Of a stretch of DNA of 64,000 nt, positions 17,486 through 63,910 are shown one piece after another. The notes under the pieces were generated by a model. That model was not told the DNA's origin. It saw nothing but the letters and a program-made list of their open reading frames with translations, and searched no databases. Source of the stretch: Candidatus Yanofskybacteria bacterium. GTDB taxonomy: Bacteria > Patescibacteriota > Minisyncoccia > 2-02-FULL-40-12 > IGHO2-12-FULL-4. The DNA lies in contig JACPNK010000006.1 in assembly GCA_016185525.1 (NCBI GenBank), positions 22,728 to 86,727 on the forward strand, read 5' to 3'. The position numbers and the translations under genes are program-made. Numbering within the stretch: position 1 is the stretch's first letter; every line of letters starts with the position of its first letter.

Positions 17486-18037
17486 CTAGAAAGGTATATC
17501 TTTCAAATCTACTTCCGCTTCTTCAATTTCATTGCTTGAAATTATCGGTTCGTTGATGGGCTCGTTTTCATTGATAACCGGTATTTCTTCGTCTTCAATT
17601 TCCTTAGCTGTTATTGCCGGTTTTTGTGAGGTGAATTTCTGGGACATCGGGCTGGAGTTTTGAGAGTAACCATTGCTGTTGCCAAGGCTTCTTGAGCCGG
17701 ATTCATTTGTTGTGCGCGGACCCAATTGTATGTTTTCAGCAACTACTTCTGTTCTGTAGCGTTTCAAATTATCTTGTCCGGTCCAAGATCGCGTCTGCAA
17801 TCTGCCCTCTATCATTACAAGTCCGCCCTTTTTTAGGTACTGGGCGGCTATCTGCGCCAATCTGCCCCACAAAGTGATGCTGTGGAATTCGACCTGCTCT
17901 TGTTTTTGTCCCGATTGGTTTGTCCAGACTCTGTTTGTCGCGACTCGCATACTGACAACTTCTTGCCCCGTGGCGGTGGTTCGGCTTTCCGGATCAGCCG
18001 CCAAACGGCCTACTAAAATGACGCGGTTTAAGTTCAT
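17486..18037 (-). CDS. ssb: single-stranded DNA-binding protein
   Basis: OB-fold N-terminus; C-terminal acidic tail ending DIPF. Confidence 0.9.
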   Translation of the reverse strand: MNLNRVILVGRLAADPESRTTATGQEVVSMRVATNRVWTNQSGQKQEQVEFHSITLWGRLAQIAAQYLKKGGLVMIEGRLQTRSWTGQDNLKRYRTEVVAENIQLGPRTTNESGSRSLGNSNGYSQNSSPMSQKFTSQKPAITAKEIEDEEIPVINENEPINEPIISSNEIEEAEVDLKDIPF

Positions 18038-18043
18038 GTTATT

Positions 18044-18499
18044 TTATAATTTAGTTATTACTTCTTCAATTTGTTTTTCAATTTCTTCCGGTTTGACTTC
18101 TTCTTTTGGTCTCTTTTCTAGTGCCGGCGGCGTATGGGTTCTAATCTTTGGTCTGGAAGAAGTTTCTTTGATACTTCTTAAAACTCTCTGATTTTCTTTG
18201 ATCTTAAGTATCAGAAATCTAAGCAAAGAGTCGTTGAGTTTAAGCTGATTTTCCAAGGGCTTAATCGCTTCCGTTGGCGATTTAAATTCAACAACTCCAA
18301 AGAAAGAAAAGCGTTTGTGTTTGAGAGGATAGGAAAGTCTTTGCTTTTTTGGTTCCCTTGAATTCAAAATAGTGCCGCCAAGCCGGGATATTACATCTTC
18401 TATTTCCTTGAGTTTGGTTCCAGTTTCGCTCTCTTCCAATTCAGGCAGAAGATGGAAACCGAGCTCGTAGTTGTCTATTTTTTGTTCTAATTCCGCCAT
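18044..18499 (-). CDS. rpsF: 30S ribosomal protein S6
   Basis: MAELEQKIDNYELGFHLLPELEE...; classic rpsF-ssb-rpsR order. The table ORF extends to 18655 but an in-frame ATG with RBS sits at 18499. Confidence 0.8.
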   Translation of the reverse strand: MAELEQKIDNYELGFHLLPELEESETGTKLKEIEDVISRLGGTILNSREPKKQRLSYPLKHKRFSFFGVVEFKSPTEAIKPLENQLKLNDSLLRFLILKIKENQRVLRSIKETSSRPKIRTHTPPALEKRPKEEVKPEEIEKQIEEVITKL

Positions 18500-18537
18500 T
18501 TTGTATGGTGGCATCCTAACAAAGAAAGTTAGTTGAG

Positions 18538-19557
18538 TCAAATTTTTATTTCCACCACGTCGCCGTCTTGGACTATGTAATCTCGGCCGACAAGTTTCAA
18601 GGTGCCGTTTTCGCGTGCTTTGCCCCACGAGCCAGCCTCCACTAACTTTTGCCAATTAATAACTTCTGCTCTAATGAAAAGTTTTTCAAAGTCAGTATGA
18701 ATAGCCCGGGAAGCTTTGGGGATAGGTGTATTTTTGGGCGCGGTCCAGGCCCGGGTTTCGTCTTCCCCCGTGGTTAAGAAGGTGATTAAATCCAGAAGCT
18801 TATAACTTTTGGAAATCAGTTCATCTAAACCGGAGTGTTCCCGGAAGACTTCTGTGAGGTATAAATCTTTTTCTTCCGGAGAGGCTTCAGACAGCAGAAG
18901 TTCAAAATTAGCGGACAAGACGACATATTGTGATTCGCCCATGGCTTTGATTAGCTCCGGTTCCGGTTGCCAGCGGTTTTTAACCTGCTCTTCCGAAGCG
19001 TTTAAAACATATATCACTTTTTTTGAAGCGAGCAGTTCCAATTCCGGCAATCCTGCCTGACCGGCAGACAGGTCTTCATTCTTGTTTTTTTTGGCCTTTC
19101 TTTTTTCTATGGATTGCAAATCGGCCAATGCTAACTCTGTCTTGATTATTTCTATGTCATGAACCGGGTCAACTTTGCTGTGGACGTGAATTATATTCTT
19201 GTCTTCAAAAACTCTTACCACATGAGCGACTGCATCCACCTCTCTGATGTTGGCCAAAAACTTATTGCCCAAACCCTCGCCTTCAGCGGCGCCTTTGATT
19301 AGTCCGGCAATGTCTATGAACTCAATTGCTGTCGGCACTATTTTTTTTGAATGAGAAAGTCCGGCTAGTATTTTCAGTCTTTCATCCGGCACCTCAACTA
19401 CGCCTACATTGGGATCAATCGTCGTAAAGGGGTAGTTGGCAATGGCTATTTGTTTTCCTGCCCCGTGGCCGCCGTCAGGCGACTTTACGGGGTTAGTTAA
19501 GGCCTTAAAGAGGGTGGATTTACCTACATTAGGCAGGCCTACGATTCCGATTTGCAT
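18538..19557 (-). CDS. ychF: ribosome-binding ATPase YchF (Obg-like GTPase family)
   Basis: [22 protein letters not shown]1 motif; C-terminal TGS-like [13 protein letters not shown]. Confidence 0.85.
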
Positions 19558-19683
19558 ATGCGGTGAATATTAGCAAAAATCCAGTAGATACGCCAATTTT
19601 TTGAGCTTGACTTTTTGCTGAAAAGGTATATGATTAAGGTATAGTTAGGATAGTTCCTTTATTTACTACTTGCCCGCTTCGAC
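19541..19683. repeat. direct repeat DR-L (ychF start + promoter region), partner at 23915-24056
   Basis: About 143 bp, roughly 93% identical to 23915-24056; includes the first 17 nt of ychF. Confidence 0.8.
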
Positions 19684-19828
19684 AAGTCGAAGACGAGGCG
19701 AGCGAGCAGTCATAGCCATAAGTTTCTGATACAAATTGGAAGTTTATTGCTATGACTGCCATTCTGGTGGTCATCGCTGCCGCATAGTGCGGCCAAAACT
19801 GCCGGCATAGCGCCGGAAGGAGGAAGTT

Positions 19829-20422
19829 ATGCGTTGGAATCCAGTTGAACAAGTACAGGATGTCGTGAACAAGTTCGGGACCGAGGAGCGCGTCAAGCGT
19901 TTCCAGTCCGGCGAGCTCGTGCTCGTGGAACGGACGGACCCTCGTGCAGTCGCGATGGTCCTCAACTTCGAGCGGAAGGTCTCGGTGGCCAGCCGCCGGT
20001 TCGTCACCGGCGAGAGCTTCACCAAGAGCAATCCCAAGGTGAAGTTTGGCCACATTGACGAGAAGGTCGTCAAGCTTTTTGGCAAGAGCCAGGACGTGCC
20101 GGCCGGCGAGCTGGCCACACACACGCTCTTACTGCCTAAGCACGATCCCGAAATCATGGTCGCTCTTGGACCTCAGTCCAGGCGTTTCATCAAGCTGGGC
20201 CAGTTCTACCAGTTGATCGAAGCGCAGGGCCAGGGCCAGGAAGGCTCCCTTCTCGTCAACGGATGCGCGAACATTGCGTACATTCTTGACGAGAACGGCG
20301 CGCCTTGGGCGGTCAGCGCGTACTGGGGCCCGATCGATGGCGACTGGCGCATGTGCGTTAACTCGGTTGCCCGCCTGCACGCGTGGCTTGCCGGCAGCCG
20401 GGTTCTCTCGCAAGTCGGATAA
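19829..20422 (+). CDS. DGR target protein 1 (variable C-terminus, C-type-lectin/FGE-like fold presumed)
   Basis: GC-rich (~60%) ORF with GGAGG RBS; its last ~35 codons are VR1. Confidence 0.75.
   Translation: MRWNPVEQVQDVVNKFGTEERVKRFQSGELVLVERTDPRAVAMVLNFERKVSVASRRFVTGESFTKSNPKVKFGHIDEKVVKLFGKSQDVPAGELATHTLLLPKHDPEIMVALGPQSRRFIKLGQFYQLIEAQGQGQEGSLLVNGCANIAYILDENGAPWAVSAYWGPIDGDWRMCVNSVARLHAWLAGSRVLSQVG
20304..20410 (+). repeat. DGR variable region VR1
   Basis: 107 bp aligned with TR1 (20701-20807); nearly all mismatches fall where TR1 has A (AAC codons in TR become GGC/CGC/TGC etc.). Confidence 0.8.
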
Positions 20423-20427
20423 GAACT

Positions 20428-20482
20428 GGGTTCCTTGGGAACTTGGTTCTTGGGCCGGCAGTAGCTTCAACGCTGTTGCCGG
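20428..20482 (+). other. GC-rich hairpin downstream of VR1 (DGR cruciform/stem-loop)
   Basis: GGGCCGGCAGTAGCTTCAACGCTGTTGCCGGCTC inverted repeat. Confidence 0.5.
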
Positions 20483-20700
20483 CTCATTTTTATTTCTATA
20501 AAATACAACTTGGATATTAGGCGAATCTGCTGATCTCCAATTGGATATCAGCGGCCGAACTCTAAGCGCGCATTCAGATTGCTATCGGAGCTTAAAAACG
20601 AAGATACTTGGTGCGGAACACTATGTGAGTCAGCTCACGAATTCGATGCAGTCCCGAGAGTATTCAACGGACAGTGGTAATGGTGGTGTTTCGCACAGAG

Positions 20701-20807
20701 CTTGGGCGGTCAACGCGAACTGGAACCCGAACTATGGCGACTGGAACATGAACGTTAACTCGGTTGCCAACCTGAACGAATGGAATGCCGGCAACCAGGT
20801 TCTCTCG
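20701..20807 (+). repeat. DGR template region TR1
   Basis: Asn-codon (AAC) rich: NWNPNYGDWNMNVNSVANLNEWNAGNQ; downstream hairpin AAACTCC/GGAGTTT and a CCAGCCGCC motif. Confidence 0.8.
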
Positions 20808-20820
20808 AAATTCTCTTCGT

Positions 20821-21168
20821 TCAAAAACTCCTTTGCGGAGTTTTTGTTTGTTTTTGCCAGCCGCCGAGCATTTTGCCTATCTCATTCAGATGATTCGACA
20901 ATGTTACATATTTCTTTACATCAAGTATTTCTATTTCCCATGCAATCTGTAATATAAATTTCAACATATCAAATGAGTCCGAGGCCTTGGCAAGATAAAA
21001 TCCTTTTTGTTCACGGTTTTTATGAGCTGCAATAAATAAATGTTCCGTGGTTTCGATAAACAGGTTATCAATTTTTAGACCAATAGTATATCGATTGATT
21101 TTCTCTAATCTAATAAAATATTCATGCCAAACTTTGTAAACCACAATCAACTTTTGGATAATCGGCAA
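20821..21168 (-). CDS. avd: Avd-like accessory variability determinant (four-helix-bundle / 23S rRNA IVS protein family)
   Basis: 115 aa; ...KFILQIAWEIEILDVKKYVTLSNHLNEIGKMLGGWQK is the typical IVS/Avd C-terminus; immediately adjacent to TR1 and the RT. Confidence 0.65.
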   Translation of the reverse strand: MPIIQKLIVVYKVWHEYFIRLEKINRYTIGLKIDNLFIETTEHLFIAAHKNREQKGFYLAKASDSFDMLKFILQIAWEIEILDVKKYVTLSNHLNEIGKMLGGWQKQTKTPQRSF

Positions 21169-21177
21169 AGTAGCGCT

Positions 21178-21187
21178 GGGGGGGGGG
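21178..21187. repeat. G10 homopolymer tract in the avd/RT divergent intergenic region
   Basis: gctggggggggggcgtag. Confidence 0.9.
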
Positions 21188-21232
21188 CGTAGAAGGATTG
21201 AATTTGGTCATAGTTTTGATGAGGTTATTAGT

Positions 21233-22177
21233 TTGGAAAATTTACTGGAATCCTGGAAAGAGTTCCTGAAAGGCAAACGCAAGAGAAAGGATGTCCAGGA
21301 GTTTGGCCTTTTTCTGATGGATAATATTATAGGCCTGCACAACGATCTTGACAATCATACATATAACCACGGGCCATATCAAGCGTTTCGCATAAATGAT
21401 CCCAAACCGAGACAGATACACAAGTCATTGGTCCGTGACCGGTTGCTCCACCATGCTATTTATCGTCAACTCTATCCGTTTTTTGATCGAATGTTTACTG
21501 CCGACTCCTTCTCATGCCGACTTGGCAAGGGGACACACAAAGCATTAAACAGGTTCAGAAGTTTTGCATTCAAAGTCAGCAAAAACAACACCAGGACGTG
21601 TTGGATTTTGAAATGTGATATCAAGAAGTTCTTTGAGAATATTGACCACGAGGTTTTGCTTAGCATCTTAAAAGAATACATCCGTGACCGGAACACTATC
21701 TGGCTTTTAGAGAGAGTGATTTACAGCTTCTCATCCGCTCCAGGTAGGGGATTGCCTCTCGGCAATCTCACCTCGCAGTTGTTCGTGAATATCTATATGA
21801 ACGAATTTGATCAGTTTGTGAAGCACAATTTGAAGGCAAAATACTATATCAGATATGCCGATGACTTTGTGGTCTTGTTTCAAGACAAATCTTGGCTCGA
21901 AGAGATGCTTCCTAAAATGGGTGACTTTCTGGAAGAAAGATTAAAACTTGAACTTCATCCAGACAAGGTTTTTATCAAAACGTTTGCTTCGGGAGTTGAC
22001 TTCCTTGGCTGGGTTCACTTTCCAGATCACAGAGCATTGAGAACGACTACCAAGAAGCGGATGCTTAAAAGGATTAAGGCAAAACAGGATATTAGCACAA
22101 CCAAATCTTATTTGGGACTTATTAGTCATGGAAATGCTAAAAAACTAGAAAAAGAGATATTAAGGATTTCTGAATAA
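21233..22177 (+). CDS. DGR reverse transcriptase
   Basis: 314 aa; RT motifs including GLPLGNLTSQLF (DGR-specific IGxxxSQ) and YIRYADDFVVL (YADD). Confidence 0.85.
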   Translation: MENLLESWKEFLKGKRKRKDVQEFGLFLMDNIIGLHNDLDNHTYNHGPYQAFRINDPKPRQIHKSLVRDRLLHHAIYRQLYPFFDRMFTADSFSCRLGKGTHKALNRFRSFAFKVSKNNTRTCWILKCDIKKFFENIDHEVLLSILKEYIRDRNTIWLLERVIYSFSSAPGRGLPLGNLTSQLFVNIYMNEFDQFVKHNLKAKYYIRYADDFVVLFQDKSWLEEMLPKMGDFLEERLKLELHPDKVFIKTFASGVDFLGWVHFPDHRALRTTTKKRMLKRIKAKQDISTTKSYLGLISHGNAKKLEKEILRISE

Positions 22178-22182
22178 TTTCT

Positions 22183-22272
22183 GTAGAGGGGGAAGTTTTA
22201 TTGTAAACTGAAACGGGATGTATTTGAGCCGGTTATCGTCAAATCCATGTCGCATTGCGTTCCGACTATACC
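22183..22272 (+). repeat. about 90 bp junction element, copy 1 (copies at 23811-23914 and 25389-25507)
   Basis: Shared GGAGGAAGTTTTAYTGTRAAC...TGTCGYATTGCGTTC blocks. Confidence 0.6.
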
Positions 22273-22406
22273 AATCTGGAGCATTTTGGTAATTTATCAT
22301 TTTAAACCCACCTTCTCAAGTTAACTTGCTATCATCAGGATCTTATGATTTAATTCCGATATAATTACTAATGTAAATTTAGTGAGTGTTTGGTAAATTA
22401 TTATTT

Positions 22407-22976
22407 ATGGAAAACGGCTATTTTTATTCACGAAGAGAAAACGTCAACGATTTGTACTATGATGCTATGGAATTGCTTCATGGAAACATTGAGGAGGCCA
22501 GGAAAGCTGAAAAATTATTAGCAAAAGCTCTTGGCCTGGATCCTAATAATATCCAAACGCATATTGGTTTTGCGCATTTGTACGGACGTCTTAAAAATAA
22601 AAAGAAAACAGAAGAACATATCAAGAAGGCCTACGAAGAAACAACTAAGAAATTTCCGGTTTGGCCCAAGCGTATGGAGTGGGGCGACATGGATAATCGG
22701 GCGTATATGAGAGCGATACAATACCGCGCTGATCTTTACGCTGATGATGGAGAAAAAGAAAAAGCCGTAAGTTTATATCGGCTGCTTCTTAAGTTGAATC
22801 CCAACGATAACCAGGGTGCTAGGTACACCATCTCTGGTGTCTATGCCGGAATAAGCGGAAAAGAAATTAATAAAATGTTTGACGAGTGCAACAGGCGACA
22901 AAATTGGGCTAGGCTTGAAGACCTGATCAAAAAACAAAATGCCAAACACAAGTTTTGGAAAGAACCAAGATTTTGA
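22407..22976 (+). CDS. TPR repeat protein
   Basis: TPR-like helical repeats (AEKLLAKALGLDPNN..., LYRLLLKLNPNDNQG); table ORF starts at a GTG at 22386. Confidence 0.5.
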   Translation: MENGYFYSRRENVNDLYYDAMELLHGNIEEARKAEKLLAKALGLDPNNIQTHIGFAHLYGRLKNKKKTEEHIKKAYEETTKKFPVWPKRMEWGDMDNRAYMRAIQYRADLYADDGEKEKAVSLYRLLLKLNPNDNQGARYTISGVYAGISGKEINKMFDECNRRQNWARLEDLIKKQNAKHKFWKEPRF

Positions 22977-23019
22977 GAAGATTGTTGATATCAAATTTCC
23001 TACATGGTATATAATAAAA

Positions 23020-23358
23020 ATGAGTACAATTCATGAGTACCTCATTGATACAGAAGATTATAGAGGCAAGCGGGTAATCTTTACTGAAGCTAAGCGTCTA
23101 GAAAAGTCAGCCCAGCATGCCGAATTAAACAATAAGCAGTTTCTAAAAAATATTGAGCCGACCATTAAAGATCCCGAAGAGGTCTGGCCAGACTATAGTG
23201 ACAAAAATAGAAAAGCATGTTATTATAAGAAATACTCAGCCACTACTTATGTTAAGGTGGTAATTTGGATATATGACAGTCCTTGTCGAGTAGTTACTGC
23301 TTATGAAACTGATAAAATTAAGGAAATGCTATATCCAGAATTAAATCGTCTTAAATAA
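23020..23358 (+). CDS. hypothetical protein
   Basis: ORF; internal ATG with A-rich upstream region, since the table start at 22939 overlaps the previous gene. Confidence 0.4.
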   Translation: MSTIHEYLIDTEDYRGKRVIFTEAKRLEKSAQHAELNNKQFLKNIEPTIKDPEEVWPDYSDKNRKACYYKKYSATTYVKVVIWIYDSPCRVVTAYETDKIKEMLYPELNRLK

Positions 23359-23368
23359 TTATAAAAAC

Positions 23369-23791
23369 ATGACAACTAACATTAAACAAAATAGAGAGTT
23401 TATTGACCTAGCCTCAAATCTCCAAGGATTTATTCAGAAAAACGGTTGGATTAGTAGATACGATCTTGAAAGTGATGCCTTTTCAATTACCACCCCGAAT
23501 TTATCGGAGGACGCTAGAATTCGCTATTTCGATGATGAGATAGCTCTTTATGTTACGAATGACAATAAGATTGAGGGTATCTTTATGGAATACTTCAAGA
23601 GTAATTTTGTCCAACACCATAAAGACCTCAAGCCTGTTTTAGAAAATATAGAAAAAGAACAAGGAAAGAAAGAAATCGGTCTTGTCCAATTAGGTAAAGA
23701 TAAAATACAAAAACTCGCTCCTGACATACAGGAAGCCCTCCAGGTGCTTCTGGCAGAGAAGCTTAATCTAGGATTAAACCAAGCTCGATAG
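23369..23791 (+). CDS. hypothetical protein
   Basis: 140 aa ORF. Confidence 0.45.
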   Translation: MTTNIKQNREFIDLASNLQGFIQKNGWISRYDLESDAFSITTPNLSEDARIRYFDDEIALYVTNDNKIEGIFMEYFKSNFVQHHKDLKPVLENIEKEQGKKEIGLVQLGKDKIQKLAPDIQEALQVLLAEKLNLGLNQAR

Positions 23792-23810
23792 TAGCCTGCT
23801 CAAATAATTG

Positions 23811-23914
23811 CTAAGGATTACCAAATAACTTCTGGACAGGAGGTAATTTTTTTTGAAACTAAAAGGTATCAGTTTTACCGGCATATTACCATAGCTGTAT
23901 CGCATTGCGTTCAT
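23811..23914 (+). repeat. about 90 bp junction element, copy 2
   Basis: CTAAGGATTACCAAATAACTT...TCGCATTGCGTTCAT. Confidence 0.6.
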
Positions 23915-24056
23915 ACGATTCCTATTTGCATATGCGGTGAATATTAGCAAAAATCCAGTAGATACACCAGTTTTTGAACTTGACTTTTTGCTGAAAAGGT
24001 ATATAACTAAAGTATAGTTAGTATAGTTCCTTTATTTACTACTTGCCCGCTTCGAC
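23915..24056. repeat. direct repeat DR-R (remnant ychF promoter + first 6 codons MQIGIV then stop)
   Basis: Matches 19541-19683. Confidence 0.8.
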
Positions 24057-24112
24057 TCCTACTACCGTCTCGTTCGTCCTCGCAGGTAGCAAAAACCTGA
24101 GACTCTTGGTTC

Positions 24113-24361
24113 TTGGACCCCGTTCAGTTTACTGAACGGGGTCGTTTTCTTTGTAGCTTTTCAACTTTAAGCACTTTTACAGGCCTTGCCTGTCAGAATA
24201 CAATGAAATACCTCGCAAACCTGTGCAATCAGACGACCAATTCAAGAAAGTTCTGGCCCAAAACAATGCTTTACCACAGCAATGACCCTGAAGGCGTTGA
24301 AATAACGAGAGCCTTTACGACAAGTTTTGAAAAAGAAACTCTGCCTAAATATAGTGAGTAA
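24113..24361 (+). CDS. hypothetical protein (weak)
   Basis: 82 aa ORF only. Confidence 0.25.
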   Translation: MDPVQFTERGRFLCSFSTLSTFTGLACQNTMKYLANLCNQTTNSRKFWPKTMLYHSNDPEGVEITRAFTTSFEKETLPKYSE

Positions 24362-24543
24362 CTGGGTAGGGTAATCTGCTCTAATCAAAATAAAACCAAC
24401 CAACAAAAAAAACACCCCTCCGAGCCATATGTTGATATCTAATTTTCTATATGGTATATAATGAAGTTAAGGAAAATTTATAGTATAGAGCGTTGGTTAT
24501 AGGTAATGTTGACTTTTCTAGTTTACTAATTTATAATATTGCT

Positions 24544-25388
24544 ATGGTAAAAAATGTCAAAAATACTCTTCATATCGGTATTAAACAACTCCTAAAATTA
24601 GATGATAAGTTGGCGAAGCTGCGTAAGCCTACATCTATTGAGGAGGAGTCTTTGCATGCCCAACACAGATTTGAAGCGACATATTACTCAAACAAGCTTG
24701 AGGGGAATAAACTAACGAAAGAAGAGGCCAGAAAAGCTATTCTATTTAAGTAATTAATGAAACGTCCACTTAATAAACGTGAGTCAGACATATTAGAAGA
24801 AGAGGCCACTGGGAAGCCTCTTCTTCTTTACATAGACTTATCAAACGCTTAGTTCGTAAAAGACTTCCTTTAGAGCTGAGGTTTATTAAAACTGCACACA
24901 AAACTATTTTTGATATTGCTAAACAACCAGAAATCGGAGGCGTGTATCGAAACGACAACAGTCCAGAGTTAAAAAGAATAGATGGAACTACTCTGCCAAT
25001 GACAGATTGGCCCTTAATATCTAACGCAATGGCAGAACTTGATTCAGAACTTAGAGAAAAAACTAAAAATCTTGTGCATCCGAAAACTGAGCAAGGATAT
25101 TCTGAATTGATAATGCTAGCAACTAGACTTTCTCATAAACTGGTCTGTATACACCCCTTTAGAAATGGGAATGGAAGAGCGTCTAGATTATTATTAAATG
25201 CTATTCTTTTAAGAGCGGGCTTATCAGAAATTGCCATTAAAAAATCAAAACCAACATATCTCCGTGCCATGAGACAAGCTGATGATGGTGACTTTTCTCT
25301 TCTAGAGAACCTTGTTGTCAACGGGTTGGTCGAAACTAAAAAAATAAATTACTCAAGTATCCATTTGTCTTACCCATCAGGTCGCTAG
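24544..25388 (+). pseudogene. fic: Fic family protein, disrupted (in-frame TAA at 24754 plus a frameshift before 24850)
   Basis: N-terminal part has SNKLEGNKLTKEEA; C-terminal part has IHPFRNGNGRASR (HPFx[DE]GNGR). The two parts lie in different frames; promoter TTGACT-17-TATAAT at 24509-24537. Confidence 0.7.
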
Positions 25389-25507
25389 CTAAGGATTACC
25401 AAATAACTTTTGAGCAGGAGGAAGTTTTACTGTGAAACGGAATGGCATGAATTTAACTGATGAGCCGCTTGAGCTATGTCGTATTGCGTTCATACAATTC
25501 CGATTTT
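25389..25507 (+). repeat. about 90 bp junction element, copy 3
   Basis: Starts CTAAGGATTACCAAATAACTT like copy 2; ends GTCGTATTGCGTTCATACAATTCCGATTT, resembling the ychF 5' end. Confidence 0.6.
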
Positions 25508-25670
25508 TAACATGTTCAGATTGTAGCAGAAAACTATGGAAAACCAAGAAAATAAAATTTAAAAACCGCCGTTACGGCGGGTCAAAAGCTTAGTCGCTCG
25601 AGTCATAATTTTGATTAAGCACCGCTTGTCAGCTTTTTACATTTTAGCGGAACAGGTTTAACATAAGAGA

Positions 25671-26477
25671 GTGCAAAAGCCATGGTACACGATAGAGGAA
25701 AAACACAAAAATAAGAAGCTGATTGTTTTTGATTTAGACGGTACGCTGACCGAGAGCAAAAAGGAGATAGACCAAGAGATGGCCTTGCTTTTGGCTAAAC
25801 TGCTTGAAAAAAAAGAAGTTGCCGTGGTTGGCGGCGGAAAATATGAGTTGTTTCAGAGTCAACTTTTGGCGAGGCTGAAAGTGCCGGAATCCTCACTGAA
25901 AAAACTTTTTATATTTCCAACTTCAGCCTCGTCCTTTTACAGTTATGTTAGGGGTTGGAAAAAAGTATATTCCAAAGAACTTTCAGAGGAAACACGGGCC
26001 AGAATTAAGAAGGCTTTTGAAGAAGTTTTCAAGGAAGTAAACTATAAACATCCCGAAAAAACTTATGGAGAGGTTATTGAAGACAGGGGTTCACAGGTTA
26101 CATTTTCCGTTTTTGGCCAGGACTTAGTTAAGGTTTTGGGCAAAAAAGGAGTTGAAATGAAAAAAGAATGGCGGGACAAAAATACTAGACTCAAATTAAG
26201 GCTCGCAAAGATGCTTCAAAAAAAACTGCCCGATTTGGAAGTCCGCGCGGCGGGCTATACTTCGATTGATGTAACTCAAAAGGGGATAGACAAGGCTTAT
26301 GGTTTAAGGCAAATAAAAAAGCATCTCGGAATTAAATTCAGCGAGATGCTGTTTGTAGGCGATGCTTTGTTTAAGGGCGGCAACGACTACGCTGCTCTTA
26401 AAACCGGCGTAGAATGTGTCGCGGTAAAGGGGCCGGAAGAAGCCAAGAAGATTATCAAATTCCTATTTTTTCTTTGA
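25671..26477 (+). CDS. HAD-IIB family hydrolase, phosphomannomutase-like
   Basis: LIVFDLDGTLTE motif I; KGIDKAYGL; FVGDALFKGGNDY. Confidence 0.65.
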   Translation: MQKPWYTIEEKHKNKKLIVFDLDGTLTESKKEIDQEMALLLAKLLEKKEVAVVGGGKYELFQSQLLARLKVPESSLKKLFIFPTSASSFYSYVRGWKKVYSKELSEETRARIKKAFEEVFKEVNYKHPEKTYGEVIEDRGSQVTFSVFGQDLVKVLGKKGVEMKKEWRDKNTRLKLRLAKMLQKKLPDLEVRAAGYTSIDVTQKGIDKAYGLRQIKKHLGIKFSEMLFVGDALFKGGNDYAALKTGVECVAVKGPEEAKKIIKFLFFL

Positions 26478-28355: not shown

Positions 28356-29210
28356 TCAGAACTTCCGGGAGGCACCAACGCCCACGTTGCCGGCGCGACC
28401 GCCGTCCCAGCTATCGATGCGGAGGCCGCGCCCGTCGAAGCGGCCGACACACGAAACGTCGCCAGCGAAGGCCGAGTCGGTCTTCACTGTCCGCTCCGCG
28501 CAGGCTGCCCATTTGGATCCGTTGGGACGAACACCAGTCTTACGGAAGACGAGGATGTCCTTGGTCGTTTCCATTATCGTCGATGGCACTTCGTACTCGG
28601 GCGGAAGCATCGCCACCTGCTCTTCGGGCGTCTTGTTCGTCGAGTTAGGAACGATCTCCGTATGGAGCAGGTAATAGCGAAGCCGCATGGTCGCCACATC
28701 GGTGTGGGGCTGGCCTCCGTGCCAGGGGTTGCTGTTGAAGTAGAACTTCGGCTGGCCCGTTGCCGGATGCAACTGAAGCCACTTGGCCACCGTGAGAGGC
28801 GAACCGTTGATGGCGGTCAGGCCCAGGAATGCGAAGTGGCAGTCCTTCACCACCTTGCCGCAGAGCGGGCAGGTGGAATTGAGGATGTCCTCACCCCACG
28901 GGAACTTTCCGGCGTCGCGGATCTGCTTCTTCGTGAACTTGGCGTCGTAGTAGCTCATCCAGTCGGCAACATCGAAAATGTTGCGACCGAGAACCATACG
29001 AGCCATGCGCGATTCGATAGAACCGATGAGGCCTTTTCGCAACATCGCCTGAGCGATGCGGCGAGTGTACTCGCTGTCGGTGCGGAAGAGATCGAAGAGA
29101 TCGCGGGGATTGCCTCCCTCACTGGCAATCGCTTTCTCAAGCGACGCCACGCTTTCCTCGAACTCACCCTTGGTCATGGTCCAGAGACCGCTTGTCTTGG
29201 CTTGTGTCAT
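28356..29210 (-). CDS. DGR target protein 2 (variable C-terminus)
   Basis: GC-rich ORF; ATG at 29210 with GGAG RBS (the longer ORF to 29279 is unlikely); C-terminus DSAFAGDVSCVGRFDGRGLRIDSWDGGRAGNVGVGASRKF is VR2. Confidence 0.7.
   Translation of the reverse strand: MTQAKTSGLWTMTKGEFEESVASLEKAIASEGGNPRDLFDLFRTDSEYTRRIAQAMLRKGLIGSIESRMARMVLGRNIFDVADWMSYYDAKFTKKQIRDAGKFPWGEDILNSTCPLCGKVVKDCHFAFLGLTAINGSPLTVAKWLQLHPATGQPKFYFNSNPWHGGQPHTDVATMRLRYYLLHTEIVPNSTNKTPEEQVAMLPPEYEVPSTIMETTKDILVFRKTGVRPNGSKWAACAERTVKTDSAFAGDVSCVGRFDGRGLRIDSWDGGRAGNVGVGASRKF
28359..28475 (-). repeat. DGR variable region VR2
   Basis: Differs from TR2 almost only at positions that are A in the TR2 sense strand (T on plus). 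Confidence 0.75.
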
Positions 29211-29480
29211 AACACATCTCCTTTTTTTGTCGGTTTGCTCTCCATGTCCTTTAGGGACTCTTGAGAGCGGATGCCCCATGCCGTGGGGCTGCGGTCCTGC
29301 CTACCGGCAGGCAGGCTTGTCTCAGAAGTTGAGACAAGTATGCTGGAAACCATTGTTTAGGCATCCAAAATGCTTGTCTCAAGTAGAACCTTATTGTAAG
29401 GAACTACATCATAATTATATCATCTTGTAAGTGTGCCTGTCAATAGGGTATTTTACTCGGGACTAGGGAATGGACTGGGT

Positions 29481-31490: not shown

Positions 31491-32304
31491 CTATTTAGTA
31501 AATTTGAAAGTTGAAAAAACTTGCGATAGATAATTAAATAATTTTGTTTTATCTAATTCATCTAGCTGTTTCTTTTCGGATGAACTGATTCCTGTATAAA
31601 GTTCTAGGGCGATCCAGTAGCATCTTTCGTTGCGATAGGTTCTGTAAGCTTGTTCGCGACGATTACCAAGATCGATATCGTCATAGGCGTAATCAGTTCC
31701 GTTAACCGATACTTGGGTTGTGTTTTTTTCCATGTAGACCGTTGCTAAACAATCTTTTTGGGATGTATCCTTTTCTGGCACAACTTGCAAAAGCGCGGCG
31801 TCGAGATTTGTGTTTACAAATTCGTCCCCCGTATAGAAAAGGCAAATTGCACTTTTAGGGCTACAATAAGACGTTCCGTCGACCATTGAAAAAGATTTTT
31901 GTTGGTTGGGTCTCAGATCTGTCGAAAGGGTGTAAAACTTTTCCGGGAACTTAAATTCAAAACCGTAATCACGATTATCATAAGCTCTCCAGCTTACCAA
32001 CTGGTCCTGTGACGGTGGTTGCGTATTAAATGCTTCTCTTTTTCGAAAAAGAGTGTTCCCTAAGTCAAGGCTAAATAGGAGTTGAGAGATAAAAAAAACA
32101 ACTAAAAGTGAGAACAAAATCCAATGCCATTTTTTAGTAAAACCACCTCTAACCGCAACCAATGTTCCCCAGACAATCAGCCCGCCTATTGGTATCAATC
32201 GAGCAAGCGATAAATTACCTTTCAGTAAGAAGTATATTGCTAAAGCAGAAGCCACCAGTAAAAGCAAGGCTATAACACCAGCAAATTTTCTATTTTGGTT
32301 CATA
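31491..32304 (-). CDS. hypothetical secreted/membrane protein
   Basis: Start MNQNRKFAGVIALLLLVASALAIYF; the longer table ORF to 32738 reads through the repeat block and is likely spurious. Confidence 0.5.
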
Positions 32305-32407
32305 TAATTATTGTACAAACTTAATTTCGACCTTATGATTAAAAAATTTTCTTCCCCCAAAATTAAAACATGGTTCGAGCCGATGTTTTTCTCCGGGCTC
32401 TTTTGCG

Positions 32408-32608
32408 GTTTTGAGCGGTGCAGCTCCGCCGCCTTTCCGAATTTTCGCGAGGGGACTTCCTCGCCGCCTGTGGCGGCGAAATGCGTTCGGACTAATTCAA
32501 GAATACTGCACCAGACAGGAAATTGCAAGTTTGAAAGGTTTGCCTCGCTTCGCTCGGCGACTAATTCGTATTGGATTTTCGGGGCAAAAAAGAATTGGCG
32601 ATTTTGCA
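32408..32608. repeat. central att-like block (inverted attP-like): arm X' + core GCACC (32508-32512) + arm Y
   Basis: Left half is the reverse complement of 31351-31455; right half is the reverse complement of 34011-34112. Confidence 0.7.
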
Positions 32609-32651
32609 TTTTGGGGGAAGAAAATTTTTTAATCCTTAATCCAAAAACAAT

Positions 32652-34160
32652 ATGAAATATATACTTTACGCTCGTAAATCTACCGAGGAGGATGACCGAC
32701 AAGTGCTTTCGATTCAAGCGCAACTCGAAGAGTTGCAAGAGTATGCCGCCAAAGAAAAACTTGAAATTGTCGCCTCGTTTTGCGAGGCGAAAACCGCAAA
32801 AGAGCCCGGGCGAATTAAATTCGCTGAAATGTTGTCATTGATTGAGAAGGGGAAAGCAGACGGAATTATTTCTTGGCACCCCGATAGATTGGCTCGTAAT
32901 TCTGTGGACGGAGGGAAGATTATTCATTTCGTAGATCGTGGCTTGATTCATTCCCTAAAATTTCCCACTTTCTGGTTCGAGGCAACACCACAAGGTTTGT
33001 TTATGCTTCAGATTGCTTTCGGTCAATCAAAATATTTTGTAGATAATTTGCGAGAGAATGTGAAGCGCGGTTTGCGACAAAAGATACGAAATGGAACATG
33101 GCCCGGTTGGGCTCCGGTTGGCTACCTAAATAACCCTAAAACCCGTGGTATAGACATTGATGTGGACAAAGCACCTAAAGTGCTAAAAATGTTTGAACTG
33201 TATGCCACCGGAGCGCATACGCTCCACTCTCTCGCAAAATGGTGCGATAACAATAACCTACGCGGCAATCTTGGGAAAAAACTTGTTATCGCAAATATAC
33301 AGAAAAATCTACAAAATATTTTCTATCTCGGTTTGATGAAGTGGAAAAGGGAAATTTTTGAGGGAAAACACGAGCCGTTAATCTCAAAGAAACTTTTTGA
33401 TAAATGTCAGGAAGTTATGGCGAAACGCGGTAAAGTGCAGGAGGTTCGCAAACATCATTTTGCTTTTCTTGGCCTTTTAAAATGTGCCTCTTGTGGTTGC
33501 TCAATCACCGGAGAGCGACAGAAAGGACATAATTACTATCGTTGCACGAAAAAGAAAGGGCCATGCCAAGAAAAGCATTATCTCCGCGAGGAAGTGTTAA
33601 CCGAGCAGATCAAAAACTTCTTGCAAAAAGTTTCTTTGTCGAGCCAAGACACCGAGAAAGTTTTGGCGGCGTTGGATAGCGAACAGGATAAAGCACGGCA
33701 AGATGCACAAGGCGAGATTAGTATTTTGAAAGAGCAATTAGGAGAGGTTGAAACAAAACTTCAAAAACTATTAGACATCTATCTTGCCGACACTTTATCC
33801 ACAGAAGAATATGCCGCCAAAAAGAAAAGTTTGCTGTATCAAAAAATGTCTTTGAATGAGAAAATCACCGACTTTGAGACAAAAGGATTGTCTTGGCTCG
33901 AACCGGCTCGTGATTTCGTTTTATCTTTGAATCAAGCCACGAATCTGCTTTCCCCTCCCAATCTTTCTGGAATGACAACATTTCTAAAAAACATCGGCTC
34001 GAACCATGTTTTGCAAAATCGCCAATTCTTTTTTGCCCCGAAAATCCAATACGAATTAGTCGCCGAGCGAAGCGAGGCAAACCTTTCAAACTTGCAATTT
34101 CCTGTCTGGTGCCCAGGGGGAGATTTGAACTCCCACGCTCTTACGAGCACACGGCCCTGA
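32652..34160 (+). CDS. large serine recombinase (integrase-type)
   Basis: N-terminal resolvase domain YARKSTEEDDRQ (catalytic Ser), zinc ribbon CASCGC...CTKKKGPC, coiled-coil; the 3' end reads through att site R into tRNA-Leu, so the true C-terminus is uncertain. Confidence 0.8.
   Translation: MKYILYARKSTEEDDRQVLSIQAQLEELQEYAAKEKLEIVASFCEAKTAKEPGRIKFAEMLSLIEKGKADGIISWHPDRLARNSVDGGKIIHFVDRGLIHSLKFPTFWFEATPQGLFMLQIAFGQSKYFVDNLRENVKRGLRQKIRNGTWPGWAPVGYLNNPKTRGIDIDVDKAPKVLKMFELYATGAHTLHSLAKWCDNNNLRGNLGKKLVIANIQKNLQNIFYLGLMKWKREIFEGKHEPLISKKLFDKCQEVMAKRGKVQEVRKHHFAFLGLLKCASCGCSITGERQKGHNYYRCTKKKGPCQEKHYLREEVLTEQIKNFLQKVSLSSQDTEKVLAALDSEQDKARQDAQGEISILKEQLGEVETKLQKLLDIYLADTLSTEEYAAKKKSLLYQKMSLNEKITDFETKGLSWLEPARDFVLSLNQATNLLSPPNLSGMTTFLKNIGSNHVLQNRQFFFAPKIQYELVAERSEANLSNLQFPVWCPGGDLNSHALTSTRP
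34011..34112. repeat. att-like site R (arm Y inverted + core GGTGC overlapping the tRNA-Leu 3' end)
   Basis: Reverse-complement identity to 32508-32608. Confidence 0.7.
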
Positions 34161-34193
34161 ACCGTGAATGTCTGCCAATTTCATCACCTGGGC
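34107..34193 (-). tRNA. tRNA-Leu (anticodon CAG), CCA encoded
   Basis: GCCCAGG acceptor stem, anticodon stem-loop CACGG-TTCAGGG-CCGTG, long variable arm, T-arm GGGAGTTCAAATCTCCC, 3' CCTGGGCACCA. Confidence 0.85.
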
Positions 34194-63638: not shown

Positions 63639-63910
63639 TCCCCGGTAGCTCAGCGGTAGAGCGGCTCGCTGTGAAATAACGCAGCTACCTAGAGAAATCT
63701 AGGATGAAAAACTTTGGGATAACGGTGAAACCTTTTTTAAAATGGTAACACCGTGGGAACCACGTAAAATGCTAAGGCATCACGTGGGCGCCGTAGAGAC
63801 TAGATACCGAAGCACCCAACAGTAGGGTGGTGATATAGTCCATCCCACTACGAAAGTAGTGGACAAATGTAACGAGAAGGTCGTAGGTTCGATCCCTACC
63901 CGGGGAGCCA
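63639..63910 (+). tRNA. tRNA (tentatively Asn, anticodon GUU after splicing) interrupted by a group I intron
   Basis: 5' exon TCCCCGGTAGCTCAGCGGTAGAGCGGCTCGCTGT; 3' exon TAACGAGAAGGTCGTAGGTTCGATCCCTACCCGGGGAGCCA; acceptor halves pair perfectly. Confidence 0.6.
63673..63869 (+). ncRNA. group I intron (197 nt) in the tRNA anticodon loop
   Basis: Follows a U in the exon and ends in G; contains the R-like GTAGAGACTAGA and S element GATATAGTCC. Confidence 0.55.

Follow-up and report, generated by a model that had tools for sequence, protein, structure and literature searches.

The 64-kb window analyzed here, a stretch of a metagenome-assembled genome (MAG) from Candidatus Yanofskybacteria (Candidate Phyla Radiation, CPR; Patescibacteria), contains a ychF gene whose product is identical to the NCBI protein on a 183-kb contig. 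Between this gene and its native neighbor, a HAD/PMM-like hydrolase gene, lie three small modules (A, B, and C), each associated with a copy of a conserved element, E, and with a start of ychF. We consider it probable that the modules represent three tandem insertions at the ychF attachment site of a family of large serine recombinases (LSRs).

Repeats and empty sites at ychF

The duplication of a 143-bp block at the ychF start, reported in the initial annotation of this DNA, is confirmed: the two blocks are direct repeats 4.4 kb apart (19540-19601 versus 23914-23975 at 95% identity, and 19598-19683 versus 23971-24056 at 94%). The block had been read as the ychF promoter and start, which holds for its left ~60 bp; the right half is instead the promoter of the target gene of a diversity-generating retroelement (DGR), and the same motif also lies upstream of DGR targets at two other loci (L033, L035). 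Element E is likewise triplicated as described (22161-22263, 23812-23913, and 25390-25492), with copies that are, at ~105 bp, slightly longer than the ~90 bp first noted. The right edge of E is a near-invariant 15-mer, T(G/A)TCG(C/T)ATTGCGTTC, which occurs three times with at most two mismatches in the 64 kb, against 0.15 occurrences expected and a count of three reached in none of 100 shuffles. The left 20-mer, allowing three mismatches, recovers only E2 and E3 in the window, E1 being more diverged there. Within the window E is therefore not a common repeat; there are the three copies and no others.

Remnants of the ychF start had been reported after E2, where MQIGIV is followed by TGA at 23914-23931 (minus strand), and after E3. 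Both are present, and a third, MLQIGIV after E1, had been overlooked; every copy of E is therefore followed, on the minus strand, by a ychF start. The live ychF takes its first six codons (MQIGIV) and its promoter from module A. Its MQIGIV start is unique among 120 ychF homologs, most of which begin MLSIGIV, while MLQIGIV is a native-type start found in 6 of the 120. If a local segment comprising the 5′ region of ychF had simply been duplicated and had then diverged, without any site-specific recombination, two direct repeats of 94-95% identity 4.4 kb apart would be accounted for, yet this appears extremely unlikely: the E copies are only 68-74% identical to one another over their full length but 72-83% identical to copies in other genomes, each adjoins a different ychF start variant, the cargo is unrelated among modules, and the same junction in other genomes contains a recombinase tail to which E is homologous.

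Comparison with close relatives (81-86% identity to the window in ychF, 90-94% in the tryptophanyl-tRNA synthetase TrpRS, and 95% in RNase J) recovers the empty site that the initial annotation had proposed to look for. Ten close-relative loci (L003-L008, L010-L012) have a single ychF start and promoter without cargo, and ychF there is directly divergent from the HAD/PMM-like gene, across a gap of 20 to ~420 bp compared with 6.1 kb in the window. In the closest relative, L012, ychF aligns with positions 18006-19551 and homology stops at 19551; its ychF start and upstream region are 93% identical to 25493-25620, and 25493-25513 is therefore the original ychF start. A 12-nt core, ATCGGNATTGTA, is found at both ends of the inserted segment. 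Taken together with the L012 alignments at both flanks, this shared core places an insertion of ~5.95 kb after ychF codon 6/7, just before the P-loop codons.

At least 10 other contigs have their insertion point at identical nucleotides, with ATNGGNATNGTN as the core and IGIV as the codons. The same core is found at all four junctions of the window (J0-J3) and at the attachment sites (attL, attR, or attB) of 14 other loci, in agreement with insertion at a single site. Downstream of this point the body of ychF matches the nearest relative (P0002) at a uniform ~92% identity, with no 5′ mosaic, save for two insertions. These insertions, at residues 22-34 and 163-169, are absent from all close homologs; the first comprises 13 residues directly after the P-loop helix, and the second reads LSAGQAG.

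Element E and a recombinase family associated with ychF

That E bounds each module, as originally described, is borne out; it is not, however, a dedicated boundary signal. Judging from its reading frame and its protein-level homology, E is the C-terminal coding tail, or last ~35 codons, of an LSR on the minus strand, and as such forms the P′ arm of attP. On the minus strand, shifted by one base from the frame of ychF, both E1 and E3 have an open frame of 38 codons, and E1 matches the LSR of contig L025 in a tblastn search (E=3.7e-5, 54% over 28 aa). E2 is 83% identical in nucleotides to the E copy of another Yanofskybacteria genome, L014. All three P′ arms keep an invariant GAACGCAATRCGA, and an alignment of 11 tails contains zero indels between NAMR and IPF. 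Pairwise differences among tails are distributed 272/272/444 over codon positions 1/2/3, and the plus-strand CTAAGGATT edge of E corresponds to the stop codon of the tail.

Short toxin- or defense-type cargo units that each end in a conserved element of ~100 bp could also suggest an integron-like cassette array, with E as a folded attC-type site, or a structured RNA. We give this explanation next to no credence. E does not fold better than shuffled sequence (z −1.8 to +0.5 for both strands of the three copies, on which basis a structured RNA or DNA hairpin was rejected), RNAalifold found no convincing covariation among its copies, and an Rfam scan returned no family match in the inserted region. 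No tyrosine integrase was detected by Pfam in the inserted region or in the other window ORFs scanned, the remainder of the window being unscanned for one, and the flanking ORFs scanned include only a serine recombinase. The codon-periodic variation of E and its homology to LSR tails at the protein level also argue against a noncoding site. Two further candidates were rejected. A short ORF on the plus strand of E, with AGGAGG as its ribosome-binding site, is interrupted by stops in E1 and E2, and AGGAGG instead represents two Pro codons of the tail on the minus strand; reading the 143-bp block as a decayed LSR 3′ end yields tblastn matches that are offset or non-significant (E=0.18-0.37).

Pattern scans for E beside a ychF-like core recovered L014 and six metagenome contigs (L020-L025). 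E follows a ychF start in L014 and L020-L024, and follows the 3′ end of an LSR gene in L025, where one 577-aa ORF spans LSR body, core, and E tail. Viral contigs contained no match to the junction pattern or to the QKLFGNP-tail pattern. The LSR family (PF00239, PF07508, PF13408) is itself found at ychF: in L009, a 546-aa LSR (Resolvase, Recombinase, and Zn_ribbon_recom domains) runs into ychF, whose protein is identical to P0003, and substitutes its start codon. An LSR reading into ychF, with a new start codon supplied at the insertion point, also occurs in L024, L026, and L030, and LSR-encoding, autonomous-type elements are represented by L009, L025, L026, and L030.

The most informative of these is L026, a complete integrated element of 10.6 kb. 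Its left end (attL) consists of a native MLSIGMV start and a tail containing IPFAFTIKLPAP; at its right end (attR) the LSR is cut at ...HRYRRTA* within ychF, which then starts MSSLKLSIGIV. The LSR body thus lies at ychF and its tail 10.6 kb away, and attP must therefore lie within the LSR reading frame, with the gene partitioned by integration. Cargo of the element includes an S8 peptidase, an AAA ATPase, a Prim-Pol/AAA_25 replication protein, and an HTH_17 protein. A comparison of junctions locates the crossover to the left of core position 9, where most attL junctions have the P type and attR junctions the B type.

More than 2,000 homologs of this LSR exist, and the two forms of the gene are both well represented among the best 120. 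The full tail (...HRHGxxxxRH(5-9)IPFxFxIxLPPP...) is present in 54 (median 580 aa), while 60 end soon after ...HR(N/Y/H)C(R/W)..., the ychF P-loop in the −1 frame, and are fused to ychF (median 544 aa); about half of the sampled family members have thus been caught integrated at ychF. The fused forms come from Kaiser-, Komeili-, Buchanan-, Jorgensen-, and Yanofskybacteria, among others. Unsplit members also occur within larger islands in other phyla, and the tail is therefore an ancestral part of the LSR protein. In an AlphaFold model of the L025 LSR (mean pLDDT 78), the crossover region is a low-confidence linker at residues 525-545, and the tail motif IPFxFxIKL forms a strand at 548-557, a 10-residue block with a mean pLDDT of ~87 that comes after a C-terminal helix-and-hairpin unit. 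Loss of this strand may alter LSR activity.

Other derivatives illustrate how such elements can be reduced or loaded. L024 is a 1.1-kb derivative that has both canonical arms and a NYN-domain gene but, of the LSR, just the final ~270 nt; LSR loss by deletion is thus one route to a recombinase-less unit. In L021 (1269-5899), an E tail is followed by an ABC-transporter cluster, with two ATPase-like and two substrate-binding-like ORFs as judged from translations; cargo behind such junctions is therefore not limited to defense or toxin genes.

The window also contains a second, unrelated LSR (32652-34160, plus strand, 502 aa; Resolvase, Recombinase, and Zn_ribbon). Its final 54 nt overlap tRNA-Leu(CAG) (34107-34193, minus), and the ORF thus enters its presumed attachment site. 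Together with ORF415 (31491-32738, without a Pfam match) it forms an insert of ~2.8 kb between RNase J and phosphoglucose isomerase (PGI) that is absent from L004. As a mobilizer of the ychF modules this LSR was considered unlikely, with 26% identity over the N-terminal domain only and its own site at tRNA-Leu. At its margins, the window begins with a 23S rRNA 3′ end and a 5S rRNA gene, and close to its end a group I intron is matched by Rfam at 63663-63862 (55 bits, above the gathering score).

Cargo of the three modules

Module A, which in the orientation of ychF runs from 22276 down to 19540, is a complete DGR, with a target gene containing a variable repeat (VR), a post-VR hairpin, a template repeat (TR), the accessory protein Avd, and a reverse transcriptase (RT). 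Mismatches between VR and TR fall at TR adenines in 22 of 23 cases, and a search for a second VR matched the module A TR to 20304-20410 only. The closest counterpart differs in context: the DGR proper (19749-22146) is 82% identical to a DGR located between rnc and rpsP in L035-L037, there without E, and the target, Avd, and RT proteins of L035 are 81%, 93%, and 81% identical in amino acids to those of module A. The RT-E junction itself recurs in L033/L034/L020 and in L023. The RT of L033 is 76% identical in amino acids, though its host is distant (70% amino acid identity in TrpRS, 53% in RNase J, and 35% in PGI), while the nearest relatives of the window have an empty site and a different DGR (RT 48% identical). 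Horizontal movement of a DGR-plus-E module is therefore indicated. The far end of an A-like module was not reached in other genomes, as contigs L033, L034, and L023 end inside the DGR.

Several observations on the DGRs stand apart from this argument. L033 (1-1195) carries an A-like DGR with two tandem targets, each behind the same ~145-nt leader, and the contig ends within the first copy. A run of nine G residues (21181-21189) lies just upstream of the module A RT start (TTG, 21233), and the N-terminus of some RT homologs extends ~25-35 aa further; the true RT start may thus be masked by a frameshift in the homopolymer or by a sequencing error. Between TrpRS and RNase J, the window has a GC-rich ORF (28356-29279, minus; ~0.60 GC, 307 aa) without a Pfam match. 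The same interval holds a different DGR (target, Avd, and RT) in L003, L004, and L006, and the module A TR has no match at 28356-29279.

Module B extends from 23926 down to 22264, again in ychF orientation. In L014, the E copy is followed by a comparable two-ORF pair, neither ORF with a Pfam match, of which the second resembles ORF140 of module B by eye, a likeness that is unscored. Module C extends from 25505 down to 23914 and retains the 143-bp block and a remnant of the post-VR flank, but has no target gene, TR, Avd, or RT; the flank remnant identifies module C as a decayed A-like DGR element. Its fic gene, which the initial annotation had called decayed, is indeed disrupted: by the first available start codon the Fic domain has already begun, and the N-terminal part is in a different reading frame and set off by a stop. 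The Pfam Fic profile is matched at positions 2-93 if the frame is read from 24816, and at 42-93 from the called ORF. Modules B and C have a promoter-like region in common, a 52-nt sequence with a TATAAT-like box (81% identical) that precedes the PBECR2 gene at 22983-23034 and the fic fragment at 24430-24481.

Table 1. Features of the ychF locus, with positions in the 64-kb window and the basis of each assignment
Feature	Position	Strand	Basis
Live ychF, 339 aa	18538-19557	minus	Pfam YchF-GTPase_C and MMR_HSR1
Junction J3, core ATCGGAATCGTA, module A right arm/ychF body; attR-like, resembles intact attB	19540-19551	minus	Junction table
143-bp block A, divergent promoter region: ychF start and promoter (19540-~19600, minus); DGR-target promoter TTGACT-16-TATGAT (19607-19634, plus)	19540-19683		Promoter scan, 10/12
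DGR target gene, 197 aa, GC ~0.60; VR 20304-20416; hairpin 20451-20486	19829-20422	plus	VR/TR repeat; hairpin scan
DGR template repeat	20701-20813	plus	VR/TR repeat
DGR accessory protein Avd	20821-21168	minus	Pfam bAvd
DGR reverse transcriptase; last codons overlap E1	21233-22177	plus	Pfam RVT_1
E1, P′ arm of module A: orphan LSR tail with its frame intact, DWYSRNAMRHGFDDNRLKYIPFQFTIKLPPLQKLFRNP*	22160-22276	minus	tblastn with L025 LSR and tail alignment
ychF start remnant MLQIGIV, right arm of module B, junction J2	22264-22284	minus	Read from sequence
Module B cargo: TPR protein	22386-22976	plus	Pfam
Module B cargo: PBECR2-family nuclease	22939-23358	plus	Pfam
Module B cargo: ORF140	23369-23791	plus	Pfam
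E2, orphan LSR tail, frameshift in poly-A run (NRNRMNAMRYSYGNMPVKLIPFSFKK/...); P′ arm of module B	23811-23926	minus	tblastn and tail alignment
143-bp block C: dead ychF start and DGR-target promoter copy; right arm of module C, junction J1	23914-24056		
DGR-target 3′-flank remnant (CTTGGTTCTTGG then hairpin)	24097-24143	plus	Alignment with post-VR regions of module A, L033, and L035; hairpin scan
Disrupted fic: N-terminal fragment 24493-24753 with S-x-x-x-E-G; Fic core frame open 24816-25388, first start codon 24942	24493-25388	plus	
E3, P′ arm of module C: orphan LSR tail with its frame intact, NRNCMNAIRHSSSGSSVKFMPFRFTVKLPPAQKLFGNP*	25389-25505	minus	tblastn with L025 tail, E=4.4e-4
Native ychF start MLKIGIV then TGA (25493-25513) with native promoter/upstream region; junction J0, attL-like	25493-25620	minus	93% identity to L012:2960-3087
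HAD/PMM-like hydrolase, native ychF neighbor	25671-26477	plus	Pfam; synteny in L003-L012
attB sequence of L003: ATCGGTATTGTAGGTCTGCC			

Assembly of the array and its precedents

The initial proposal of serial site-specific integration, with each event regenerating the gene start, is supported by the empty sites, by the identical insertion nucleotides, and by the LSR genes that read into ychF in relatives. In the mechanism we envisage, the LSR family targets the DNA encoding IGIV/GLPNVGKS at the ychF 5′ end, and the attP core lies inside the LSR's own reading frame, ~35-45 codons before the stop, such that integration splits the gene. The LSR body stays beside ychF, running a few codons into it out of frame and providing a new ychF start, while the tail lands at the far end of the element, beside the orphaned native start. 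Each new insertion would then push the prior ychF start outward and supply a fresh one. Modules A, B, and C have kept the tail arm without the recombinase and carry, at the other end, a short native-like ychF start and promoter; this arrangement may keep ychF expressed and leave an attB-like site at the gene body, permitting the next insertion. The three modules may have been inserted successively by an LSR acting in trans, or by one formerly present and then deleted. The order of insertion is also a matter of inference: wobble positions in the junction cores were uninformative, though it is plausible that the outer fic module is older than the others.

Several results weigh against this reconstruction. 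No LSR of the ychF-type family was detected in the 64-kb window, where tblastn with two such LSRs returned the three ~35-codon tails only, and Pfam found no LSR ORF within 19540-25513, so that none of the window modules qualifies as an autonomous element. Nor was a full-length LSR with a window-type tail, ending QKLFGNP, found; such tails were recovered only as orphans, and a profile search of 1.84 billion representatives gave 14 matches, mostly short ORFs or C-terminal LSR fragments with orphan tails. On the side of ychF, modules A, B, and C end in arms that resemble native B arms rather than an LSR 3′ end, the canonical P arm (CATGTC...AAAACT), and a module circle would therefore bear an attL-like instead of an attP-like site; to our knowledge, canonical LSRs do not recombine attL with attB. 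Further, the 143-bp blocks are 95% identical yet their E copies only ~74%, a mismatch that points to later gene conversion or rearrangement rather than to three clean events. Finally, independent Logan assemblies of two sequencing runs, both with identical ychF (L001:1-22, L002:1-34), break off within the duplicated block, 22-34 nt before ychF begins.

These breaks, and the source of the window in a MAG contig, might suggest that strain alleles of the ychF upstream region were strung into a false tandem during metagenome assembly. We regard such an artefact as very unlikely: short-read assemblers would be expected to break at a 143-bp repeat even if it were real, the 183-kb NCBI contig covers the whole region, and the junctions between start remnants and tails share their architecture with independent assemblies from other samples. 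The native-like arms would also fit an import of the array, as a pre-assembled composite or module by module, in which DNA taken up from other strains recombined homologously within ychF and HAD on either side. Each native-like start, with its promoter, would then be the true chromosomal start of a donor lineage with an integrated LSR element, in keeping with MLQIGIV as a common native start and with the presence of module A in a distant host. Import nonetheless appears unlikely, given the uniform, unmosaic ychF body, the native HAD side, and a MQIGIV start that is matched in no other ychF homolog; it would also still require LSR integration in each donor, and so would alter where the events occurred but not the identity of E. 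The recombinase-less modules may owe their present state to trans-mobilization, to deletion decay, or to import by homologous recombination.

A broader interpretation is also possible, if distinctly tentative: "self-splitting" serine integrases, widespread in CPR bacteria, and recombinase-less modules may together turn the ychF start into an integron-like platform on which accretion is open-ended and an LSR acts in trans. With attP in a disordered C-terminal linker, integration would remove a structurally needed beta-strand and so would be self-limiting, leaving tails behind as molecular fossils. Cargo modules such as DGRs and toxin pairs, by combining a tail arm with a native-like start, would regenerate an attB-like site each time.

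In our literature searches we came across neither an LSR that targets ychF nor a serine integrase that is split when it integrates. Partial precedents nevertheless exist. In staphylococci, the LSRs of SCC/SCCmec elements insert at the end of a housekeeping gene, rlmH (orfX), that is kept functional, where elements accumulate in tandem and some units (psiSCC, ACME) lack a recombinase (10.1101/336396, PMC5964201). An SCC composite island—LSR-driven, tandem, and containing recombinase-less units—is thus the closest working analogue of the window array. Recombinase-less SCC units can be mobilized in trans. The ychF system differs from SCC in its target, the 5′ end and P-loop codons of the gene, so that each element must carry a promoter and start codon; in having one LSR rather than CcrA/CcrB; in an LSR gene that spans attP and is cut by integration; and in its CPR host. 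L024 has an att-flanked, recombinase-less structure of this kind, with both canonical arms and no LSR; in the window, the P′ arms are conserved and the other arms are native-like. Accretion of this type is also known for the ICESt1/ICESt3 integrative and conjugative elements (ICEs) of Streptococcus thermophilus, in which recombinase-less, att-flanked units (CIMEs) stand in tandem with, or are left by, autonomous elements. Those elements, unlike the modules of the window, depend on a tyrosine recombinase and target the fda 3′ end, and the ychF-side arms of the window are not canonical att arms.

An integrase gene divided by its own integration is familiar from the SSV-type "suicidal" integrases of archaeal viruses and plasmids, in which the site lies inside the integrase gene and the two pieces flank the element; a 2021 review described this split architecture as exclusive to Archaea (PMC8371274). 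The ychF LSR family is similarly partitioned on integration (L026 split; L025 and 54 homologs unsplit; 60 fused to ychF). The resemblance is architectural only: SSV-type integrases are tyrosine recombinases, with a catalytic fold that the ychF LSR does not share, and are split near the N-terminus, whereas the enzyme described here, a serine recombinase of bacteria, is shortened by only ~35-45 residues at its C-terminal end. SXT/R391, as Hochhut and Waldor reportedly found in 1999, integrates in prfC at its 5′ end, giving the gene a new promoter and N-terminus. Both systems thus insert where the coding sequence of an essential-type translation GTPase begins; SXT/R391, however, is a single large conjugative element with a tyrosine integrase, with neither a split integrase nor tandem small modules. 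A looser precedent is a defective pneumococcal prophage whose int gene lies immediately upstream of ychF and that affects ychF expression (PMC8637289). In that case attB is intergenic (DUF951-ychF), and the ychF coding start is not replaced (PMC8637289).

Three traits of the system described above are unusual: the recombinase gene is severed by the enzyme's own reaction, the target in ychF lies at the 5′ end in the P-loop codons, and a DGR module is mobile. Genome engineering has a demand for LSRs whose natural att sites are conserved and well defined, and an attB encoding a motif conserved from bacteria to humans could, speculatively, be a lead in that direction. The self-cut recombinase gene suggests a testable route to directionality control without, or besides, a recombination directionality factor. 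More broadly, what had been a repeat pattern now resolves into a defined system, an LSR family aimed at a near-universal YchF/OLA1 coding motif in small-genome CPR bacteria. DGRs are abundant in CPR genomes; here they appear as cargo of a site-specific, lineage-crossing module, which may offer a concrete vehicle for their spread.

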